Below are positions 14,019 to 62,760 of a stretch of DNA of 64,000 bases, piece after piece. A program made the translations under genes and the position numbers. The stretch comes from Crinalium sp. GTDB lineage: Bacteria; Cyanobacteriota; Cyanobacteriia; Elainellales; Elainellaceae. Under the pieces are notes generated by a model. That model was given only the letters and a program-made list of their open reading frames with translations. It ran no database searches and was not told the DNA's origin. The stretch is taken from contig DATNPS010000014.1 in NCBI GenBank assembly GCA_036703095.1, positions 3,822 to 67,821 on the forward strand, read 5' to 3'. Position 1 is the stretch's first letter, and the number at the start of each line of letters is the position of its first letter.

Positions 14019-14831
14019 ATGAATGTTTTGATTGTCTATGCTCATCCTGAACCACAATCTCTTAACGCGTCATTGAAAAATCTAGCCGTGAGAGTTTTGA
14101 CGGAAGCTGGACATTCAGTGCAGGTATCGGATTTATATGCAATGCATTGGAAGCCATCGATCGATGGAGCAGATTTTTTGAACCGCATTAATCCCGATCG
14201 CTTAGATATCATCAAAGAATCGGGTAAAGCCTTTGCTGAAGGTAGTCAAACCAACGATGTCATTGGTGAGCAGGAGAAATTGCGCTGGGCAGATGCAGTA
14301 ATTTTTCAATTTCCTTACTGGTGGTTTTCCATGCCTGCGATTATGAAAGGTTGGGTTGAACGGGTCTTTGCCTATGGATTTGCTTATGGCGTAGGTGGCA
14401 ATAATCGCAAGCGATATGGTGAGGGCAATCTGAAAGGCAAACGTGCTATGTTATCGATCACCATTGGTGCTCCCGAAAAAGATTATTCAGAACGGGGAAT
14501 CAACGGTGCGATCGCCGATCTCCTTTTCCCAATTCACCACGGTATTCTCTTCTTTCCTGGCATGAGTGTGCTGCCACCATTTCTCATTTATAGCGCAGGT
14601 CATTTAACTGCGGCAGATTACAAGCAAGTTGAGGCAGATTACAAAGTGCGGTTACTGAATTTGTTTACAACGAACCCTATCCCTTTTCGCAGCCAAAATG
14701 GTGGTGATTATGATGATGATTATCAACTGAAGTCAGGACTTGAAGGACATCACACAGGATTAAAAATTCATCAGTCTATAGATTCAAAGACACGAAAAGC
14801 AATTAAAAATTACAGCAAAGAAGTAGCTTAA
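14019..14831 (+). CDS. NQO1 (DT-diaphorase)-like NAD(P)H:quinone oxidoreductase, long form with C-terminal domain
   Basis: Motifs are MNVLIVYAHPEPQSLNASLKN, VSDLYAMHWKP, EQEKLRWADAVIFQFPYWWFSMPAIMKGWVERVF, KRAMLSITIG, LLFPIHHGILFFPG and GHHTGLKIHQSI. These track the mammalian NQO1 sequence as I remember it along its whole ~270 aa. The track ORF starts at TTG 13995. ATG 14019 is more plausible. Confidence 0.85.
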   Translation: MNVLIVYAHPEPQSLNASLKNLAVRVLTEAGHSVQVSDLYAMHWKPSIDGADFLNRINPDRLDIIKESGKAFAEGSQTNDVIGEQEKLRWADAVIFQFPYWWFSMPAIMKGWVERVFAYGFAYGVGGNNRKRYGEGNLKGKRAMLSITIGAPEKDYSERGINGAIADLLFPIHHGILFFPGMSVLPPFLIYSAGHLTAADYKQVEADYKVRLLNLFTTNPIPFRSQNGGDYDDDYQLKSGLEGHHTGLKIHQSIDSKTRKAIKNYSKEVA

Positions 14832-14844
14832 CGTGAGTCTCCAA

Positions 14845-14883
14845 CAAGGGGGGTAGTAGTGCAGCGCACTACTACCCCCCTTG
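14845..14883. repeat. Perfect 18-bp-arm palindrome CAAGGGGGGTAGTAGTGC-AGC-GCACTACTACCCCCCTTG after the NQO1-like gene
   Basis: Exact reverse-complement arms lie 14 nt after the stop. Confidence 0.7.
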
Positions 14884-14911
14884 GGAAAACGAAAAGAAAA
14901 CACGTTTTCTT

Positions 14912-15123
14912 AGGAATTCGATGAACGGGCTTTTATAGCAATCGAGGGGTTAGTTAGGACGGGGTGCAGGGGTGGAACCCCTGGCCAGGGGCGCAGCCCC
15001 AATACTCCCTGTCCTAACCATCTCAACGGTTGCTATAGAGGTGATGCGCGCCGCGCGTCACCTCTAAAAGCCTGATTTTGCGTGCGCGACGCGCACGCAA
15101 AATCAGGTTTTGGAATTTACGTC
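14912..15123. mobile_element. Composite GAATTC-ended palindromic element (family 1) carrying nested inserts: a family-2 element (14953..15018), palindrome GGTGATGCGCG-C-CGCGCGTCACC (15040..15062) and palindrome TGATTTTGCGTGCGCGACGCGCACGCAAAATCA (15073..15105)
   Basis: The ends AGGAATTCGATGA and GGAATTTACGT match the termini of the other four family-1 copies. The inner arm GGGCTTTTATAGCAA pairs with TTGCTATAGA...TCTAAAAGCC, which is itself split by the 15040 palindrome. Confidence 0.6.
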
Positions 15124-15126
15124 AGC

Positions 15127-16050
15127 TTAAGATTTTTTTGGAGCTTCAATTGCTGCCGCCACTTCCCTGAGTGTATTTCTCAACCAAAGATGTCCTGGAT
15201 CTTTGCTTAAACGTTGATGCCATAGCATTCCCAACGGGAATTTGCGCTGGGGAAAGGGTGGTTCGTAAGCAATCAGATCCGTCAATTGCTGGAACATCTC
15301 CACCAATCGACGGGGTAGAACCGCAATATAATCGGTCTGAGCCAACACGATCGGAGCTAACAGAAAACTCGGCACGGTAAATGCAACACGTCGCTTTAAA
15401 CCCATTTCTGCCAAAATTTCATCCACAAATCCGGTTGCATCACCTGTACGTGAGATTAACAACTGTGGTGTGGCGACAAAAGATTCCATAGTCAATGGTT
15501 TAACTGCCAGAGGATGTCCTTTTCGCATGACACAGAGAAATCCCCCAGGTTCTAGCAAATGTTGGTGCTCAAACTGAGGCTGGAAAGACTCAAAGGGAGC
15601 GATCGCCAAATCGACCGCGTCTTCATCCAGCAATTTCATTCCCCACGCATCGTCCGCATAGATTAATCGCAAGTCAATGTTTGGGGCTTCCCGACTCAGT
15701 TTTACACCAAGACTGGGTAATAAAATCGATGCAGCAAAGTCATTGGTTGCTAGCTTGAATGTGCGACTGGTAGTAGCAGGATCAAAAACTTGAGGTTCCA
15801 ACGCAGTCTGGATTTGCATTAAGGCTTGTCGCAGCGGAACAGCTAGTTCCTGTGCTTTGCGCGTTGGCTGCATTTGGTCGGCACGACGAATGAACAAATC
15901 GTCTTTGAGTAGATGTCGCAAACGATTGAGTGCTGCACTTACCGCAGGTTGACTTAACCCAATGCGCTCTCCTGCCCGCGTCACATGGCGTTCAGCCATG
16001 AGTGCATCAAACACAACCAGTAGATTCAGATCGACCCCTGCCAAATCCAT
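15127..16050 (-). CDS. LysR-family transcriptional regulator
   Basis: 307 aa. The N-terminal HTH is DLNLLVVFDALMAERHVTRAGERIGLSQPAVSAALNRLR, followed by a LysR substrate-binding domain. Confidence 0.9.
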   Translation of the reverse strand: MDLAGVDLNLLVVFDALMAERHVTRAGERIGLSQPAVSAALNRLRHLLKDDLFIRRADQMQPTRKAQELAVPLRQALMQIQTALEPQVFDPATTSRTFKLATNDFAASILLPSLGVKLSREAPNIDLRLIYADDAWGMKLLDEDAVDLAIAPFESFQPQFEHQHLLEPGGFLCVMRKGHPLAVKPLTMESFVATPQLLISRTGDATGFVDEILAEMGLKRRVAFTVPSFLLAPIVLAQTDYIAVLPRRLVEMFQQLTDLIAYEPPFPQRKFPLGMLWHQRLSKDPGHLWLRNTLREVAAAIEAPKKS

Positions 16051-16511: not shown

Positions 16512-17240
16512 ATGAAAATTGAACAAACCGACGTGATCATTTCGACACCGGATGGACAGATGCCTGCCGTCCTGGTTGCACCCAGTCGTCCATCAGAACC
16601 GTCCCCCGCTGTGCTTCTGCTAATGGAGGCGTTTGGAGTTACGTCACACATACAAGATGTAGCAACCCAAATTGCGAATGAAGGGTATGTTGTTTTGATT
16701 CCAGACTTATACTACCGGGAATTGCCCAACAACAAGTTTGGCTATGATGAAGTAGATCAGGCAATGGCAATGATGTGGAGATTGAATTTTGGTCAACCCA
16801 TGGAAAATGACCTGAAAGCCGCCCTGACGTATTTGAAAACGCTTGCCAATGGATATGTCAATCGCATTGGGGTGACTGGATTTTGCCTGGGAGGGGGACT
16901 GTCTTTTCTAACGGCTTGCCGATTCTCCAATGAAATTGCTGCTGTCGCTCCCTTTTACGGCATGGTGCTTGACGAGTGGATTGATGCAGTCAAGGATATT
17001 ACCGTTCCCACGTATTTGTTTTTTGGAGGAAGAGATTCATTTATTCCGGGCGATCGCATCCAGCAAATTGACACCCGCTTTCGAGAACTGGGGAAAGACT
17101 ACAAACTGAAAATCTATCCTGATGCCGGACATGGCTTTTTCTGTAACGAGCGATCGGATTACAACCCCAATGCTGCCGCCGATGCCTGGGCAGAGTTAAA
17201 GCAGTTTTTTGAAAAATATTTATCAAACAAATTCGACTAA
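16512..17240 (+). CDS. Dienelactone hydrolase family protein
   Basis: 242 aa. Motifs are AVLLLMEAFGVTSHIQDVATQIANEGYVVLIPDLYYR, the nucleophile motif GVTGFCLGG, and a C-terminal YPDAGHGF. Confidence 0.85.
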   Translation: MKIEQTDVIISTPDGQMPAVLVAPSRPSEPSPAVLLLMEAFGVTSHIQDVATQIANEGYVVLIPDLYYRELPNNKFGYDEVDQAMAMMWRLNFGQPMENDLKAALTYLKTLANGYVNRIGVTGFCLGGGLSFLTACRFSNEIAAVAPFYGMVLDEWIDAVKDITVPTYLFFGGRDSFIPGDRIQQIDTRFRELGKDYKLKIYPDAGHGFFCNERSDYNPNAAADAWAELKQFFEKYLSNKFD

Positions 17241-17270
17241 AATTACCGGAACTGCCATGAAGATACCTAC

Positions 17271-17378
17271 GTAAATTCGATAGCGCCATTTCCGCCGCCC
17301 GTTGGGTAGCGGAAATGGCGCAAATTGGTATCCCGTGCGTCGTGCGGGATACCAATTTGCACATTCGTTGAATTCAAG
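17271..17378. mobile_element. Family-1 GAATTC-ended modular palindromic element (two internal hairpins)
   Basis: The layout is GTAAATTCGATAG, hairpin GCGCCATTTCCGC/GCGGAAATGGCGC, hairpin AAATTGGTATCCCG/CGGGATACCAATTT, then CGTTGAATTCAAG. Confidence 0.6.
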
Positions 17379-17397
17379 TTAAACCCGGAAGGTTCAG

Positions 17398-17995
17398 CTA
17401 TCGGACTGCTGTGAATTTGCGGAGGGGTTGGATAACCACCAGCATGAACCGTCCAGGCACATCGACTTTGAATTCCACCATCGTTGCAACCTCAGGAGGA
17501 ACATTAGTCGTCTGGACGTTGGTCATCGGTGCAGAGGTGAGTGAGGCTTCAGGGTAAACGCGATCGAACACTTCACCAATCATATGGAAGGCAGAAGTAT
17601 AGTTCGGGCCACCAACGCCGAAGAAGATGCGAACCGTTTCACCGACTTTGGCATGAAGGGGAGATTTTTCTGCCAGTGCTTTCGATGCTCCATTGAACAC
17701 AAAGTAGGAAGGTTGTTCGCTCAGCAGCTTATCGACGCTGAATTCTTGGTTACCGCGATCGCTAGCCGCTTGAACCGTATAAAGTTCACCTTGCATCACG
17801 TAAAATTCGCGATCGACTTTGGATAAACCACCTTCGGGTTCTACCAAAATCAGACCATACATGCCATTGATAATGTGATGTGCCACCATTGGCGTTGCAC
17901 AGTGGTAAACATACAGGCCAGGGTTAATGGGCTTAAAGGTAAAGACTTTTCCATCACCCGGAGATGCTTGCGTCAACGCTCTTGAGCTAGCGTTG
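17398..17995 (-). pseudogene. nirK: Copper-containing nitrite reductase (NirK) remnant, truncated at both ends
   Basis: The 192-codon ORF begins at TTG. It contains FKPINPGLYVYHCATPMVAHHIINGMYGLILVEP (the His-Cys...His...Met copper-ligand loop) and domain-2 sequence up to VEFKVDVPGRFMLV. The first ~110 residues, which carry the N-terminal Cu-ligand histidines, are absent. The C-terminus diverges (VVIQPLRKFTAVR) where VDH... is expected. Confidence 0.75.
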
Positions 17996-18000
17996 TTAAC

Positions 18001-18106
18001 GTGAATTCAATAGCGCCATTTCAGCTACGCGTCGTGCGGCTGAAATGACGCAAGAATATGCCCAAGCGACGTGTGGACATGTTCTTGCGCAGTTGTCGAA
18101 TTCAGG
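18001..18106. mobile_element. Family-1 GAATTC-ended modular palindromic element, same orientation as 17271..17378
   Basis: The layout is GTGAATTCAATAG, hairpin GCGCCATTTCAGC/GCTGAAATGACGC, hairpin GCAAGAATATG/CATGTTCTTGC, then GTCGAATTCAGG. Confidence 0.6.
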
Positions 18107-18477
18107 TTTTACCAAGTAATTGATGTGTTATTTCTCTCCAGCGAAAGCGATATTGAAGATCAGTCCTATTTCAACATTGACACTTATTTGGGTCAAGAAT
18201 TGTGTCAGCATGTCAATTTGAGATTGAAAGATGAGGTAGCTCATAGTTAGCAAGTTTTGATTCTGAGAAAGTATTTAGTGAGAAGTAAATGTGATAGTTT
18301 CCTCACAACTTCCTCAGGTTTGGTATCTAGACTTACAGAAAGTCCAAAAGTTCTGGTGAGCAAGCTTTCTAAGCATTACTACTCAATCCACTTTTTCATT
18401 TGTGAGTTCGTGCGCGATCGCACATCCAGCTTTGATCTGGAGTTTTCACTTTAAGGCTGATTGTAGAGATTACAACA

Positions 18478-20787
18478 ATGACAAGTCCTTCTATTCGTCT
18501 CAATACGCCTAAAACGGCGACTCGCAGGTGGGGAATTAGCCTACCTGCCTGGTTAGTATTGATTTGCGTCATCATGTTTTCCGTTCTGTTAGGAGCGGGA
18601 GCCGCCATCTGGAAAAATGCACCCCCTATTCCAGCAGCCGTGGTTTCGCCTCAGCAAAACGTGCTGTTCACACAGACTGAAATTCAGTCTGGTCAAGAAA
18701 TTTACCTCGCACGCGGCGGTCAGCATATTGGCAGCGTATGGGGGCACGGTAGTTATCTTGCACCTGATTGGTCAGCAGACTTTTTGCATAAATGGGGTTT
18801 AGCTACCGCAGGTGTGTTGCAAAGTGACAATCCCAACTTTACTCAAGCGGATCTCGAAGCACTGCCAGTGGGCGATCGCGCCAGCTTAGAAGCCAGAGTG
18901 GCAGAGCAATTTAAGACTAATCGCTTTGTTCCTGACACTCAAATTTTGACACTGACAAACGCTCAGTCAAAAGCGCTGCCTAAAGTGTTTGCAGACTATC
19001 AAACGCTGTTGTCCAATGGCTCACGTGAGTTCTCCATTCCCAGCGGTTGGTTTACGAACAATGAACAAATTCGGGACGTTAGTACCTTCTTTGCCTGGAC
19101 GGCTTGGGCTGCGTCGGCAAACCGCTTTAATGCACCATTCTCTTACACCGCCAACTTTCCCCATGACCCACTGGTTGGCAATGAAGCTCCCGGTCAGTTT
19201 GTCATCTGGTCGATCGCCTCTGTGATTCTATTAATTGGTGGCATCGGCGTTTTTCTATTCGTCAACCTGAAGATGGAGGATGCAGAAGAAGTACAGGAGG
19301 TCGTCGCCCGCCCTGCCCTTCGCATTCCCACCGCTAGCCAAAAAGTCACTACTCTATTCTTTGGCGTGGCGATGGCACTGTTCCTGGTACAGATCGCCAT
19401 GGGCATGGTGACAGCTCACTATGCGGTTGAGGGAGATGGGTTCTATGGTGTCCCGCTCGATAAGTTTCTTCCCTATGCTGCTTCACGCACCTGGCACTTG
19501 CAGTTAGCGGTATTCTGGATTGCCACCTGTTGGTTGGCGGCGGGTCTGTATTTCGCCCCTCGCTTTGGTAAACAAGAGCCCAAAGGACAGGCGATCGGGA
19601 ATAGCGTACTGCTGGGTGCATTGACGGTCGTGGTCGTGGGTTCCATGATCGGATCTTGGGCAGGCATCCAAGGAATTTTGGGAACTAATCTCAGCTTCTA
19701 CCTGGGACATCAGGGCTATGAATACGTTGAACTCGGTCGCGTCTGGCAAGTTCTCCTCATCGGTGGCATGACCTTCTGGCTGTGGTTGATGTACCGCGCC
19801 CTCAAGCCTGCATTGAAACAAGAAGGCTCGAAGACTGGGTTAAATCACTTCTTCCTGTATTCTGCCATCACGATTCCTCTGTTCTACTCTGCTGGGTTGA
19901 TGTACTCAAACCACACTCCGATGAGCGTTGCTGAGTACTGGCGCTGGTGGGTGGTTCACCTCTGGGTGGAAGGGTTCTTTGAAGTGTTTGCAACCGTGGC
20001 GATCGCTTACCTCTGTAGTGAACTGGGGTTCCTGAAGCGGGAAGCAGCTCTGAGAGCCACCTATCTGACAACCATTCTTTTCCTGGGCAGTGGCATTATT
20101 GGAACGTTGCATCACCTCTACTTTGCAGGCACACCCGTTTTCATTACCGCCATGGGTTCAGTTGCATCTGCACTAGAAGTTGTGCCTCTTACACTGATTG
20201 GCTTTGAAGTAGCAAAATCTCTCAAACTCTCACAAAATGCTCAGGGCTTCTATCGAATGCCACTGCGCTTCTTCATCGCGACTTGTGTATGGAACTTGAT
20301 TGGTGCCGGAGTGTTTGGTTTCTTAATCAATCCACCAATTGTTCTTTACTACTCACAAGGCCTTAACACCACTCCAATTCATGCTCACTCAGCATTGTTT
20401 GGTGTTTACGGTTCACTGGCTCTTGCGCTCATGTTATTTGCGCTGCGAGAGATTACCCCTGAAAAAGCCTGGAATGAAAAGCTACTGCGGTTCTCGTTCT
20501 GGCACATCAACGGTGGCTTGGCCGTAATGATGATCTTCGGTCTCATCCCCAACGGTTTCTACCAGTTAGTTCAGTCTGTCAATCACGGCACCTGGTACGC
20601 TCGTAGTGCAGAGGTTATTCACTCTCGCTTTATGGAATGGACTGTTTGGCTTCGTATTCCCGGTGATGTCATCTTCACCGTTGGTGCGCTGGCAATGATG
20701 TTGTTTGTGGGTCAGGCAATCTGGGCGATCTTTCGTCAACCCACTCAAGCTCAGCCAGAGTTAGTTGAAGTCAAAGAAGTTGTATAG
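18478..20787 (+). CDS. norB: Quinol-dependent nitric oxide reductase, large single-subunit form (qNOR, NorB/NorZ)
   Basis: 769 aa. It has an N-terminal TM helix plus a ~250-aa extension, followed by a 12+ TM heme-copper-oxidase core with WWVVHLWVEGFFEVF, GTLHHLYF and HAHSALFG histidine motifs. Confidence 0.9.
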   Translation: MTSPSIRLNTPKTATRRWGISLPAWLVLICVIMFSVLLGAGAAIWKNAPPIPAAVVSPQQNVLFTQTEIQSGQEIYLARGGQHIGSVWGHGSYLAPDWSADFLHKWGLATAGVLQSDNPNFTQADLEALPVGDRASLEARVAEQFKTNRFVPDTQILTLTNAQSKALPKVFADYQTLLSNGSREFSIPSGWFTNNEQIRDVSTFFAWTAWAASANRFNAPFSYTANFPHDPLVGNEAPGQFVIWSIASVILLIGGIGVFLFVNLKMEDAEEVQEVVARPALRIPTASQKVTTLFFGVAMALFLVQIAMGMVTAHYAVEGDGFYGVPLDKFLPYAASRTWHLQLAVFWIATCWLAAGLYFAPRFGKQEPKGQAIGNSVLLGALTVVVVGSMIGSWAGIQGILGTNLSFYLGHQGYEYVELGRVWQVLLIGGMTFWLWLMYRALKPALKQEGSKTGLNHFFLYSAITIPLFYSAGLMYSNHTPMSVAEYWRWWVVHLWVEGFFEVFATVAIAYLCSELGFLKREAALRATYLTTILFLGSGIIGTLHHLYFAGTPVFITAMGSVASALEVVPLTLIGFEVAKSLKLSQNAQGFYRMPLRFFIATCVWNLIGAGVFGFLINPPIVLYYSQGLNTTPIHAHSALFGVYGSLALALMLFALREITPEKAWNEKLLRFSFWHINGGLAVMMIFGLIPNGFYQLVQSVNHGTWYARSAEVIHSRFMEWTVWLRIPGDVIFTVGALAMMLFVGQAIWAIFRQPTQAQPELVEVKEVV

Positions 20788-20805
20788 CGTTACGCCATTA
20801 CATTA

Positions 20806-20840
20806 GAGCGGGGTGCAGGGTTCTATCCTTGCGCCCCGTC
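20806..20840 (+). terminator. Imperfect GC-rich hairpin (GAGCGGGGTGCAGGG / TTCTAT / CCTTGCGCCCCGTC) 19 nt after the norB stop
   Basis: A ~13-bp stem with one bulge and one mismatch. It shares GGGGTGCAGGG with the family-2 core. Confidence 0.4.
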
Positions 20841-20848
20841 TTAATCTT

Positions 20849-20946
20849 GCGTGAATTCGACAGACGGGCTTTTGGGAGGACACCTTCCCAAAAGCCCGTT
20901 TGTTATACGCGTCGCGCACGCAAAATCGCGTTCGCCGAATTCATGC
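20849..20946. mobile_element. Family-1 GAATTC-ended palindromic element
   Basis: The layout is GCGTGAATTCGACAG, hairpin ACGGGCTTTTGGGAGG-ACA-CCTTCCCAAAAGCCCGT, a half copy of the GCGTCGCGCACGCAAAAT palindrome, then CGCCGAATTCATGC. Confidence 0.6.
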
Positions 20947-20969
20947 GATGTATAGCTGTATTCATTCGG

Positions 20970-21048
20970 GTTAGGACGGAGTGCAGGGGTAGAACCCCTG
21001 ACTGGGAGCGAAGCTCCCATCCCCCCTCTTGGTTTTCGATGTCCTAAC
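20970..21048. mobile_element. Family-2 element GTTAGGACGGAGTGCAGGGGTAGAACCCCTG...GTCCTAAC
   Basis: It has 8-bp inverted termini and a conserved 5' ~30 nt with the internal hairpin CAGGGGT-AGA-ACCCCTG. Other copies are at 2077, 14953 and 60964. Confidence 0.55.
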
Positions 21049-59707: not shown

Positions 59708-59890
59708 ATGAATCCCAAGCAAACAGCATTGGTTTTGATTGAGTATCAGAATGACTTCACAACCGAGGGAGGAACGCTGCATCAGAGTGTGAAGGGGGTG
59801 ATGGAAGGGACGAATATGCATCCACAATGGGTTATGAGCACCGCAACTCAAATGGATTGCGGTGCTCACACTTTGCAATCACTAAAGAAA
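59708..59890 (+). pseudogene. N-terminal fragment of an isochorismatase-family (cysteine hydrolase) gene, cut off by the element at 59890
   Basis: MNPKQTALVLIEYQNDFTTEGGTLHQSVKGVMEGTNM matches the family N-terminus (TAL-vID-QNDF...GG-L). The rest of track ORF 59708..60088 reads through the palindromic element and is not coding. Confidence 0.55.
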
Positions 59891-60000
59891 CGTGAATTCG
59901 ATAGCCCAATTTTGCGTGCGCGACGCGCACGCAAAATTGGGCTTTTGGGAGAGTGGCGCGTCGCGCCACTCTCCCAAAAGCCCGATCGTCAAATTCACGT
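59890..60000. mobile_element. Family-1 GAATTC-ended palindromic element with nested palindromes
   Basis: The termini are ACGTGAATTCGATAG ... CGTCAAATTCACGT (12-bp inverted repeats). Inside are CCAATTTTGCGTGCGCGACGCGCACGCAAAATTGG (59906..59940) and GGGCTTTTGGGAGAGTGGCGCG-TC-GCGCCACTCTCCCAAAAGCCC (59939..59983). Confidence 0.65.
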
Positions 60001-60009
60001 TAAAAAACG

Positions 60010-62521: not shown

Positions 62522-62560
62522 TCCTGATAATACCTCTAGACACTAAGTCTCATTATGCAA

Positions 62561-62644
62561 ATGGGTGACAATGCAAGCGCGCCGAAGGTACGCTGGCATT
62601 GCCACCCATTCTGAGTTTTGCGCACCCGACGGGTAAGCAAAACC
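62561..62644 (+). terminator. Two consecutive hairpins after the transporter gene (AATGGGTGACAATGC...GCATTGCCACCCATT; GTTTTGC-GCACCCGACGGGTAA-GCAAAAC)
   Basis: The first stem is 15 bp with one mismatch (62561..62611). The second is a 7-bp stem with an inner ACCCG-A-CGGGT helix (62616..62644). Confidence 0.5.
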
Positions 62645-62760
62645 CGCAATGGGTTCCAAACTGAGAATTGCTAAGCTACAGCTATATTTTGTGATACAGG
62701 AATCTGGAAATGGTAAATTGACAGATGTAGTGTCAAGTTACTGTAGGTGCAGGATAAACT

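Follow-up and report, generated by a model that had tools for sequence, protein, structure and literature searches.

The stretch of Crinalium sp. DNA analysed here (64,000 nucleotides of contig DATNPS010000014.1, hereafter the window) carries five copies of a palindromic repeat with GAATTC-containing ends, which an earlier note had described as a mobile family with hairpins nested inside hairpins. A covariance model built from the family (R1) recovered all five at the places reported, at 15011-15123, 17268-17380, 17998-18108, 20848-20947 and 59889-60001, and found no additional member in the window, its two further weak matches there both being other hairpin repeats. With a probability of roughly 0.88, we regard the five elements as non-autonomous miniature transposons (MITEs, short for miniature inverted-repeat transposable elements) that carry terminal inverted repeats (TIRs) of the IS982 family of insertion sequences (ISs). 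They belong to two subfamilies, A and B; copy 1 is in addition extended by an end module (module C) and interrupted by an element of another family (family D). The features at the five sites are as follows.

14825-14829, no strand assigned: left target-site duplication AGCTT of copy 1, placed from the sequence and the ends of the open reading frames (ORFs)
14830-15123, minus strand: copy 1, a composite long-form MITE of 294 bp, made up of module C, a B-type body with its GACGAA-type end first and a nested family-D element; ends AACGTGAG... / ...GAATTTACGTC
14830-14914, plus strand: module C of copy 1, with AACGTGAGTCTCCAAC, a hairpin with 18-bp arms and GGAAAACGAAAAGAAAACACGTTTTCTTAGG, joined to AATTCGA of the body
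14936-15035, no strand assigned: nested family-D element (TAGCAATCG..GGTTAGGACGGGGTGCAGGGG..GTCCTAACC..CGGTTGCTA) in the left arm of hairpin 2 of copy 1
15124-15128, no strand assigned: right target-site duplication AGCTT of copy 1, placed from the sequence
17268-17380, plus strand: A-type MITE of 113 bp, R1 score 98.4 bits, flanks ATACC / AAACC, alike at 4 of 5 positions
17998-18108, plus strand: A-type MITE of 111 bp, R1 score 75.5 bits, no target duplication (TTGTT / TTACC)
20848-20947, minus strand: decayed B-type MITE, R1 score 43 bits, ends mutated (TGCGTG.. ..CATGCG), no duplication
59889-60001, plus strand: canonical B-type MITE of 113 bp, R1 score 123.4 bits, flanks AAAGA / AAAAA

Copy 1 occupies the entire spacer of a convergent gene pair, a flavodoxin-like gene (end 14831) and a LysR gene (end 15127). 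Its start, previously placed at 14912, was corrected to 14830, since the 85-nt module at 14830-14914 belongs to it, and a perfect AGCTT duplication brackets the whole 294-bp composite. In the reconstructed empty site, GTAGCTTAAGATT, the TAA stops of both genes overlap in the palindrome CTTAAG, and both stops are intact after insertion. The nesting described for this copy is real, the insert being the family-D element: it is 100 nt long, has its own TA duplication (14934-14935 and 15036-15037), and its removal restores a stem, GGCTTTTAGAGGTGATGCGCG / CGCGCGTCACCTCTAAAAGCC, of 21 bp with one mismatch. The second case of nesting, proposed for the copy at 59889-60001, did not hold. This copy is canonical and has its two hairpins side by side, in the order TIR, hairpin 1 (CCCAATTTTGCGTGCGCG-A-CGCGCACGCAAAATTGGG), hairpin 2 (CTTTTGGGAGAGTGGCGCG-T-CGCGCCACTCTCCCAAAAG) and TIR; folded as single-stranded DNA, it is predicted to form a three-way junction of -55.5 kcal/mol (z = -14.5).

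The two A-type copies lie on either side of a 192-codon remnant of nirK (17398-17976, minus strand), which aligns at 74% identity to residues 346-525 of the 580-aa NirK of a related genome. The copy at 17268-17380 has a dienelactone-hydrolase gene, whose stop is at 17240, on one side and the 3' end of the nirK fragment (17398) on the other, and the copy at 17998-18108, which has the same orientation, lies 22 nt from its truncated 5' end. Because the latter copy has no target duplication, an adjacent deletion or recombination is suggested there, and the position of the remnant between two MITEs of the same orientation suggests a MITE-associated deletion. Of the two pseudogene breakpoints at which elements had been said to sit, nirK was therefore retained, the fragment being truncated on both sides beside the two copies, while isochorismatase gave no signal: the ORFs beside 59889-60001 had no Pfam match, and PF00857 was absent from all six frames of the whole contig. 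An apparently intact qNOR gene (18478-20787) adjoins the nirK remnant. Downstream of it lies the decayed copy at 20848-20947, located between two family-D-like repeats, with the GC core of hairpin 2 deleted and the left arm of hairpin 1 degraded.

BLAST of the consensus sequences against the genome (8.43 Mb in 599 contigs, 49.7% G+C) returned about 970 loci, which amount to 95 kb (1.1% of its length) and form one family that includes all five window copies; the same consensus sequences had no match among plasmid records. The genome-wide search for further copies that the earlier note had called for thus answers the objection that there might be none. The common termini of the five copies are likewise far beyond chance: the terminus CGTGAATTCGATAG, with up to two mismatches, occurs 830 times genome-wide, compared with 30-77 occurrences for five shuffled 14-mers of the same composition. 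When each left terminus was paired with the nearest right one, the distance from GTGAATTC to GAATTCAC was exactly 107 nt in 166 pairs, and about 300 pairs fell within 95-112 nt.

The canonical unit of 113 bp consists of a TIR of 13-16 bp, two tandem GC-cored hairpins and a second TIR. It is short and non-coding, as is the long form of about 190 bp, and its interior is taken up wholly by the two hairpins. The TIRs read (A/G)ACGTGAATTCGA…TCGAATTCACGT(T/C), and their 14 terminal pairs are 90.6% complementary (51 copies). The consensus of subfamily A is AACGTGAATTCGATAG-CGCCATTTCAGCCGCGCG-A-CGCGCGGCTGAAATGGCG-CAAAAAGGTGTCCCGCGCG-T-CGCGCGGGACACCTTTTTG-CGCATTCGTCGAATTCACGTT; subfamily B shares this frame, its hairpins being CCCGATTTTGCGTGCGCG-A-CGCGCACGCAAAATCGGG and CTTTTGGGAGAGTTGCGCG-T-CGCGCAACTCTCCCAAAAG. 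A single strand is predicted to fold into a three-way junction of the TIR stem and the two hairpins, with minimum free energies of -87 and -85 kcal/mol for the two consensus sequences under RNA parameters. The types of the two hairpins go strictly together, A1 only with A2 and B1 only with B2; the commonest combinations are B1-B2 (90 copies) and A1-A2, and no A/B chimera was found. In a 69-nt form, seen in 20 copies, hairpin 1 contributes the left arm and hairpin 2 the right arm, a structure that identifies it, at the level of sequence, as the product of deletion across the common GCGCG-N-CGCGC cores and not as a single module; one copy of 138 nt has three hairpins. Overall, a recognisable MITE terminus lies no more than 260 nt away from 93-94% of hairpin modules, and the inspected remainder were decayed MITEs with decayed termini. 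Therefore, the hairpins are parts of one element and not independent mobile units.

The long form, represented by 95 copies, has one end of the structure AACGTG-AGTCTCCAAC..(18-bp-arm hairpin)..GGAAAACGAAAAGAAAACACGTTTTCTTAGG-AATTCGA, that is, an 81-nt insert between AACGTG and AATTCGA, which together with AACG of the terminus makes up the 85-nt module C. This module was found on either end of either subfamily. The composites have a median length of 190 bp, and their outer 5-bp duplication is exact in 12 of 61 and agrees at 4 of 5 positions in 7 more, indicating that long forms moved as units. Behind the previously noted "different combinations" of hairpins are two subfamilies, internal deletions between the hairpin cores (the 69-nt forms), an end module that only some copies have, a few duplications, and inserted elements of other MITE families. 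A resemblance to Tn3-type ends through TCACGTTAA, which we take to be common to the MITE end and the inner part of the Tn3 inverted repeat, was dismissed, as it runs in the opposite orientation and lacks the outer GGGG.

The flanks of the copies bear the marks of insertion. When all offsets and lengths were tried, only the 5 bp directly outside NACGTG...CACGTN stood out: they are identical in 65 of 298 copies (1.7 expected) and agree at 4 of 5 positions in 40 more (12.7 expected). At least 55 different sequences are represented among the duplicated pentamers, and the 5-bp duplication is also present in other genera. The reconstructed target logo, YT-AANTT-AR, describes a palindromic TTAANTTAA-like site whose duplicated part is 75% A+T; the element would enter a palindromic AT-rich target, the central 5 bp of which would be duplicated on insertion. 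In addition, for 25 copies the joined flanks have an uninterrupted counterpart at another place in the genome, and some 20 of these represent clear paralogous empty sites, in up to 133 places. In the following examples of filled sites, the pentamer is present once in each uninterrupted paralogue.

C213:49183-49295 and C387:60986-61098: repeat E (more than 100 copies) interrupted after AAATT
C379:4546-4658: module-C junction interrupted after TTCTT
C502 and C565: repeat D interrupted

Filled and empty paralogous sites of this kind are direct evidence, at the sequence level, of transposition by precise insertion, and target duplications, for which the earlier note had proposed to look, were found together with empty sites that are paralogous. 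Presence also differs among congeners: in three congeners of genome G016, the genes that flank one of its filled loci have no element between them. In the other MITE-rich genera, genes of congeners are 73-80% identical and their spacers do not align. Together with the roughly 970 loci, these filled and empty sites bear out the proposal of a mobile, multi-copy palindromic family.

To which transposase the ends belong was indicated by scanning for DDE_Tnp_1 domains and then looking for the end motif, an approach that identified a 925-bp element on contig C387 of the window's genome (G000:C387:43590-44514). Its TIRs, AACGTGAGTTCGACG / AACGCGAGTTCGACG, agree with the MITE end AACGTGAATTCGACG at 14 of 15 positions. 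The transposase frame of this element is broken by stops and frameshifts (NF033520, 135 bits with stops), it is the sole copy in the genome, and it is likely the dead parent of the MITE family. Its read-through product has relatives in 18 of the 57 genomes of the order, and intact relatives of 292-293 aa scored 242 and 261 bits with NF033520 (the IS982 equivalog, cut-off 130) and 1e-66 with PF13612. Full-length IS elements in these relatives measure 934-989 bp, with ends such as AACGTCAGTTCGGGATAAGG / AACGTCAGTTCGGGTTAAGC in genome G022. The MITE of genus g17 (AACGTCAGTTCGGGATAAG.. ..CTTAACCCGAACTGAGGTT, target-site duplication AATAC) has the same two ends as the G022 IS, with the left/right asymmetry kept, and the intact IS982 elements of G022, G033, G071, G074 and G024 have ends equal to MITE ends in related genera. 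Two full-length IS copies carry 5-bp duplications, TAGCT and AACTT. IS982 elements are about 1 kb long, make direct repeats of 0-10 bp and have inverted repeats that start with 5'-AC and follow the pattern AC(N)6T(N)5TT (PMC7335449); the length of the partner elements (925-989 bp) and the 5-bp duplication agree with the first two of these features. The common ends suggest mobilisation in trans, in which an IS982-family DDE transposase would bind both ends and insert the element. Two further searches of the assembly yielded other sequences: MITE ends paired 0.45-6 kb apart, with and without matching 5-bp flanks, enclosed only ordinary genes between separate MITEs, and clustering of ORFs of at least 150 aa for multi-copy transposases gave just psbA-type and other cellular paralogues, with hardly any repeated IS in the assembly.

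As the sole IS982 copy in the assembly is a pseudogene, the family in the window's genome is probably no longer mobile and a decaying fossil, unless an intact IS982 copy is absent from the fragmented assembly. Of the 113 positions, a median of 17 in A copies and of 10 in B copies differ here from the subfamily consensus, and copies with intact duplications have diverged less than those without. Many MITE populations in other genomes may be fossils as well, because several MITE-rich genomes are without an intact IS982 gene.

R1 matched the family in 26 of the 57 genomes and 12 of the 25 genera of the order. Five genomes have from 59 to at least 66 matches, and the load varies widely within genera, as in g17 (at least 66, 12, 8 and 0). 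A strict two-terminus pattern, run on 61 relatives, matched the window's own genome only, because other genera use GTCAGTTCGGG ends, a failure that the covariance model overcame. GAATTC within the ends is a variant specific to the window's genome, and a joining of modules at EcoRI sites, considered for this motif, was dropped, as the motif is just this genome's version of the IS982 end. Metagenome-assembled genomes (MAGs) named Leptolyngbyaceae and Pseudanabaenaceae contain an exact 21-mer of the left end; their copies keep the two-hairpin frame with different stems and have the right end GAACTGACGT. Judged by the names of the MAGs that carry the element, the host is a Leptolyngbyaceae-type filamentous cyanobacterium and does not belong to a heterocystous lineage. 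The family is abundant in Leptolyngbyaceae-type cyanobacteria and was previously undescribed, although its kind, IS982-derived MITEs, is already known. One exact 21-mer match to the MITE end also occurred in a Pirellulaceae-labelled MAG (JANRLS010000126.1) from the same study as a Pseudanabaenaceae MAG; it is probably a chance or partial match, because the remaining sequence is unlike the element.

With long ORFs taken as gene proxies (77% coverage), 752 of 793 elements (95%) were intergenic, compared with 19% of random positions. Convergent spacers held 211 elements and divergent ones 59, although the genome has equal numbers of both spacer types. Elements lay a median of 54 nt from a 3' end, a quarter of them within 6 nt, and a median of 268 nt from a 5' end, so that the placement at gene ends seen in the window holds genome-wide. 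The reconstructed target is similar to a TAA stop codon and to the CTTAAG at which convergent genes overlap, and selection would probably purge insertions that hit genes or promoters. A stop-codon-like target together with such selection would account for the pile-up at 3' ends, for which a host function is not needed. At copy 1, the TTAA-like target exemplifies how elements can be put exactly on the overlapping stops of convergent genes without damage.

The feature of the family that deserves further work is that its hairpins stay perfect while they diversify. In unfiltered copies, stem pairing is 92-94%, compared with 33-47% when the partners are slid by one or two positions. An alignment of 51 sequences showed 13 of 16 and 17 of 19 stem pairs changed on both sides, and none of 500 shuffles reached the observed measures, whereas variation in the TIR stem was almost solely one-sided. 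Counted against the subfamily consensus, changes in one arm comprised 206 transitions and 37 transversions in A and 126 and 27 in B, a bias that we read as ordinary decay after insertion. In contrast, complementary changes in both arms numbered 266 in A (22 expected) and 201 in B (9 expected), 12-22 times above independence, and were divided into transition-type and transversion-type changes as 137:129 in A and 108:93 in B, a ratio of about 1:1 as opposed to about 5:1 for one-arm changes. Perfect palindromes with arms of at least 17 nt and centred on CG-N-CG numbered 418 genome-wide, with 269 distinct arms; hairpin 2 of subfamily A accounted for 79 of these forms with 71 distinct arms. The base at the palindrome centre was T in 201, A in 187, G in 17 and C in 13, and its A/T state was independent between the two hairpins of one element.

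These spectra are compatible with, and give slightly less than an even chance to, hairpins being kept perfect at the DNA level by arm-to-arm copying, through template switching at quasi-palindromes during replication or transposition. Template switching is favoured because it mirrors any type of substitution, whereas stepwise compensation of the G:U type would favour transition-type double changes; stepwise RNA-type compensation is therefore the less likely route. Alternatively, selection on active source copies for a foldable intermediate might keep the hairpins paired. It is a more speculative idea, and on balance a doubtful one, that the hairpins are self-correcting DNA palindromes instead of passive cargo, in which arm changes are copied by template switching or by repair of extruded hairpins and the apex flips between A and T. 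If this were true, it would explain why stems are hypervariable yet perfect and why double changes have no transition bias; IS982-type ends would then spread palindromes that are driven by homogenisation at the level of replication and possibly needed for a three-way-junction transposition intermediate. With several hundred copies in one genome and two mutation spectra, the family offers a data set to separate DNA-level homogenisation from selection on RNA structure.

Several observations weigh against the reading of the elements as IS982-type MITEs and of their hairpins as maintained at the DNA level. A clean 5-bp duplication was seen in just 2 of about 6 inspected full-length IS copies of relatives. 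The hallmark AC start of IS982 (PMC7335449) sits at MITE positions 2-3, and when the pattern AC(N)6T(N)5TT is laid over the MITE ends, the T after six bases is present and the TT is shifted or absent. An intact transposase with these ends is absent from this assembly and from the MITE-rich genomes G016, G014, G006 and G027, and across genomes the presence of the transposase and the MITE load correlate poorly. Genome G067 (genus g4), for example, has 32 IS982-type transposase matches (about 70% identity, many at contig ends) and 0 MITE matches, and appears to harbour an active IS population without a MITE. The interior hairpins have no counterpart in the IS, and the MITE is therefore not a simple internal deletion of it. 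As to the hairpins, the 51-sequence alignment was pre-filtered (at most 4 stem mismatches) and includes relatives, so that its 98% pairing is inflated relative to the 92-94% of unfiltered copies, and copies related by descent can inflate covariation counts.

The same hairpins invite three other explanations of the family as a whole. If single hairpins were autonomous very small mobile repeats of the heterocystous type and the GAATTC-ended units mere landing pads for them, as the likeness drawn previously would have it, one would point to the real nesting in copy 1, to the existence of forms with one, two and three hairpins and to the independent flipping of the loop base in the two hairpins. 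Yet A1-A2 and B1-B2 are strictly linked, 93-94% of modules have a MITE terminus within 260 nt and the inspected rest are decayed MITEs, the 69-nt forms are fused arms of hairpins 1 and 2 and not a single module, and what interrupts copy 1 is 100 nt long, belongs to another family and has a TA duplication of its own. It is the entire 113-bp element, with its TIRs and 5-bp duplication, that moves; the hairpins do not disperse alone, and we consider autonomous hairpins very improbable. Even less credence can be given to REP/REPIN-type palindromes spread by RAYT, an IS200/IS605-type tyrosine transposase acting on single-stranded hairpins, a mobiliser for which a search had been suggested. GC-rich hairpins with compensatory changes, an extragenic location and hundreds of copies would suit it, and the genome does have one Y1 transposase gene. 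However, this sole Y1 gene (C545:14150-14509) is not flanked by these hairpins, Y1 transposition does not make TIRs with variable 5-bp duplications, and the ends match an IS982 element, leaving an IS982-family DDE transposase as the candidate enzyme.

A third explanation, that the elements are host-useful structures under selection at each locus, such as 3'-end RNA stabilisers, bidirectional terminators or protein-binding cruciforms, with transposition as mere delivery, seems to us unlikely, though less so than the other two. It would accord with the strong bias to 3' ends and convergent spacers, with the extreme predicted stability (z = -14.5), with pairing that is kept across genera while the sequence changes, and with hairpin 2 of subfamily A, which consists of an A-tract, a GC stem and a T-tract. 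Against this, the GC core has the T-run on its 5' side and the A-run on its 3' side in three of the four hairpin types, a polarity that is wrong for a terminator, a terminator scan did not call the window copies as intrinsic terminators, and no Rfam 15 family scored above its gathering threshold, the only matches being sub-threshold chance hairpin matches to microRNA models. Moreover, 6-8% of stem positions are decaying by one-arm changes with a transition bias, and divergence is greater in copies that lack duplications, which is what neutral fossils would be expected to show; the TTAA-like target together with purifying selection also accounts for the 3' bias. The reading as IS982-type MITEs remains the one that we prefer.

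The nesting itself is real, in that complete MITEs enter MITEs of other families, and the hairpin-in-hairpin appearance arises because MITE copies land in other small repeats and vice versa. Repeat D (TAGCAATCG..GGTTAGGACGGGGTGCAGGGG..GTCCTAACC..CGGTTGCTA), of about 100-105 nt, has about 580 loci in the genome and occurs in the window at 14936-15035, 20970-21027 and ~20783-20845. The TA duplication of its nested copy suggests that it is an IS630/mariner-type MITE, and it is both target and invader of the IS982-type MITEs. Repeat E (..GGATTTAATAAAACCCGAAACTTAATTGTTGAAAGCGCGGCTCTGCCGCGCTTTCAACAATTAAAAATTTGGTTTTAATT..) is a single-hairpin element present at G000:C390:46537-46611 and in more than 100 other places, none of them in the window, and provides the clearest MITE empty sites. 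A two-hairpin element of another family, with the end ..ACTGAGAATTGCT, lies at window positions 62545-62669; copies of it are often inserted in A/B MITEs elsewhere in the genome. An isolated long hairpin at 2320-2382 (ATATGAACTCAAACACCTGCGCCTC..GAGGCGCAGGTGTTTGAGTTCATA) is a weak R1 match and not a member of the family.

One MITE family accounts for about 1% of the genome and, across at least 12 related genera, for hundreds of hairpins between genes, and in annotation such hairpins should not be taken for small RNAs, terminators or regulatory palindromes. The family is probably behind much of the fragmentation of the assembly, and it marks sites of rearrangement, for example at the nirK remnant between two copies.

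Among known systems, the small dispersed repeats of heterocystous cyanobacteria that Elhai and colleagues reportedly described in 2008 are about 21-27 nt long and are said to move alone. The present family resembles them in comprising small palindromic repeats nested in other repeats within cyanobacterial intergenic DNA, but units of 20-30 nt reportedly disperse by themselves there, whereas the hairpins here do not disperse independently. REPINs (PMC3116915) are likewise extragenic hairpins whose pairing is kept by compensatory changes within one genome; unlike the present elements, they have no TIR or target duplication and depend on RAYT. Nezha and other cyanobacterial MITEs, as far as they are covered in PMC3184786, have TIRs and direct repeats, are predicted to fold stably, show both empty and filled sites, and have a parent IS possibly absent from the host, all as found here. 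According to the same source, Nezha, 130-170 bp long, is an element of Nostocales whose ends are also those of ISNpu3 (Zhou et al. 2008; Kaneko et al. 2007; Lin et al. 2011, via PMC3184786), whereas the present family has, by that account, other ends, another parent family and another host order.

Comparison with the IS982 family (PMC7335449), which includes the cyanobacterial ISNsp1, showed agreement in the partner elements of 925-989 bp with one transposase gene of about 292 aa above the NF033520 cut-off, in inverted repeats of 15-20 bp and in 5-bp direct repeats, which are within the variable range of the family, several listed members making 5 bp. In contrast, the MITE is gene-less and its ends read (A/G)AC..., with the conserved AC one base in. 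An IS982-derived MITE is known from the Cardinium endosymbiont of Oedothorax gibbosus, where an element of about 240 bp derived from ISCca4 (IS982) is accompanied by intact parents (PMC9769881). Like the family described here, it is non-coding, has IS982 inverted repeats, was amplified in a lineage-specific manner and outnumbers its parent IS. The present element differs from it in its length of 113 bp, in an interior of two perfect hairpins unrelated to the IS, and in combining a lone pseudogene parent with a family that extends over at least 12 genera of one cyanobacterial order.

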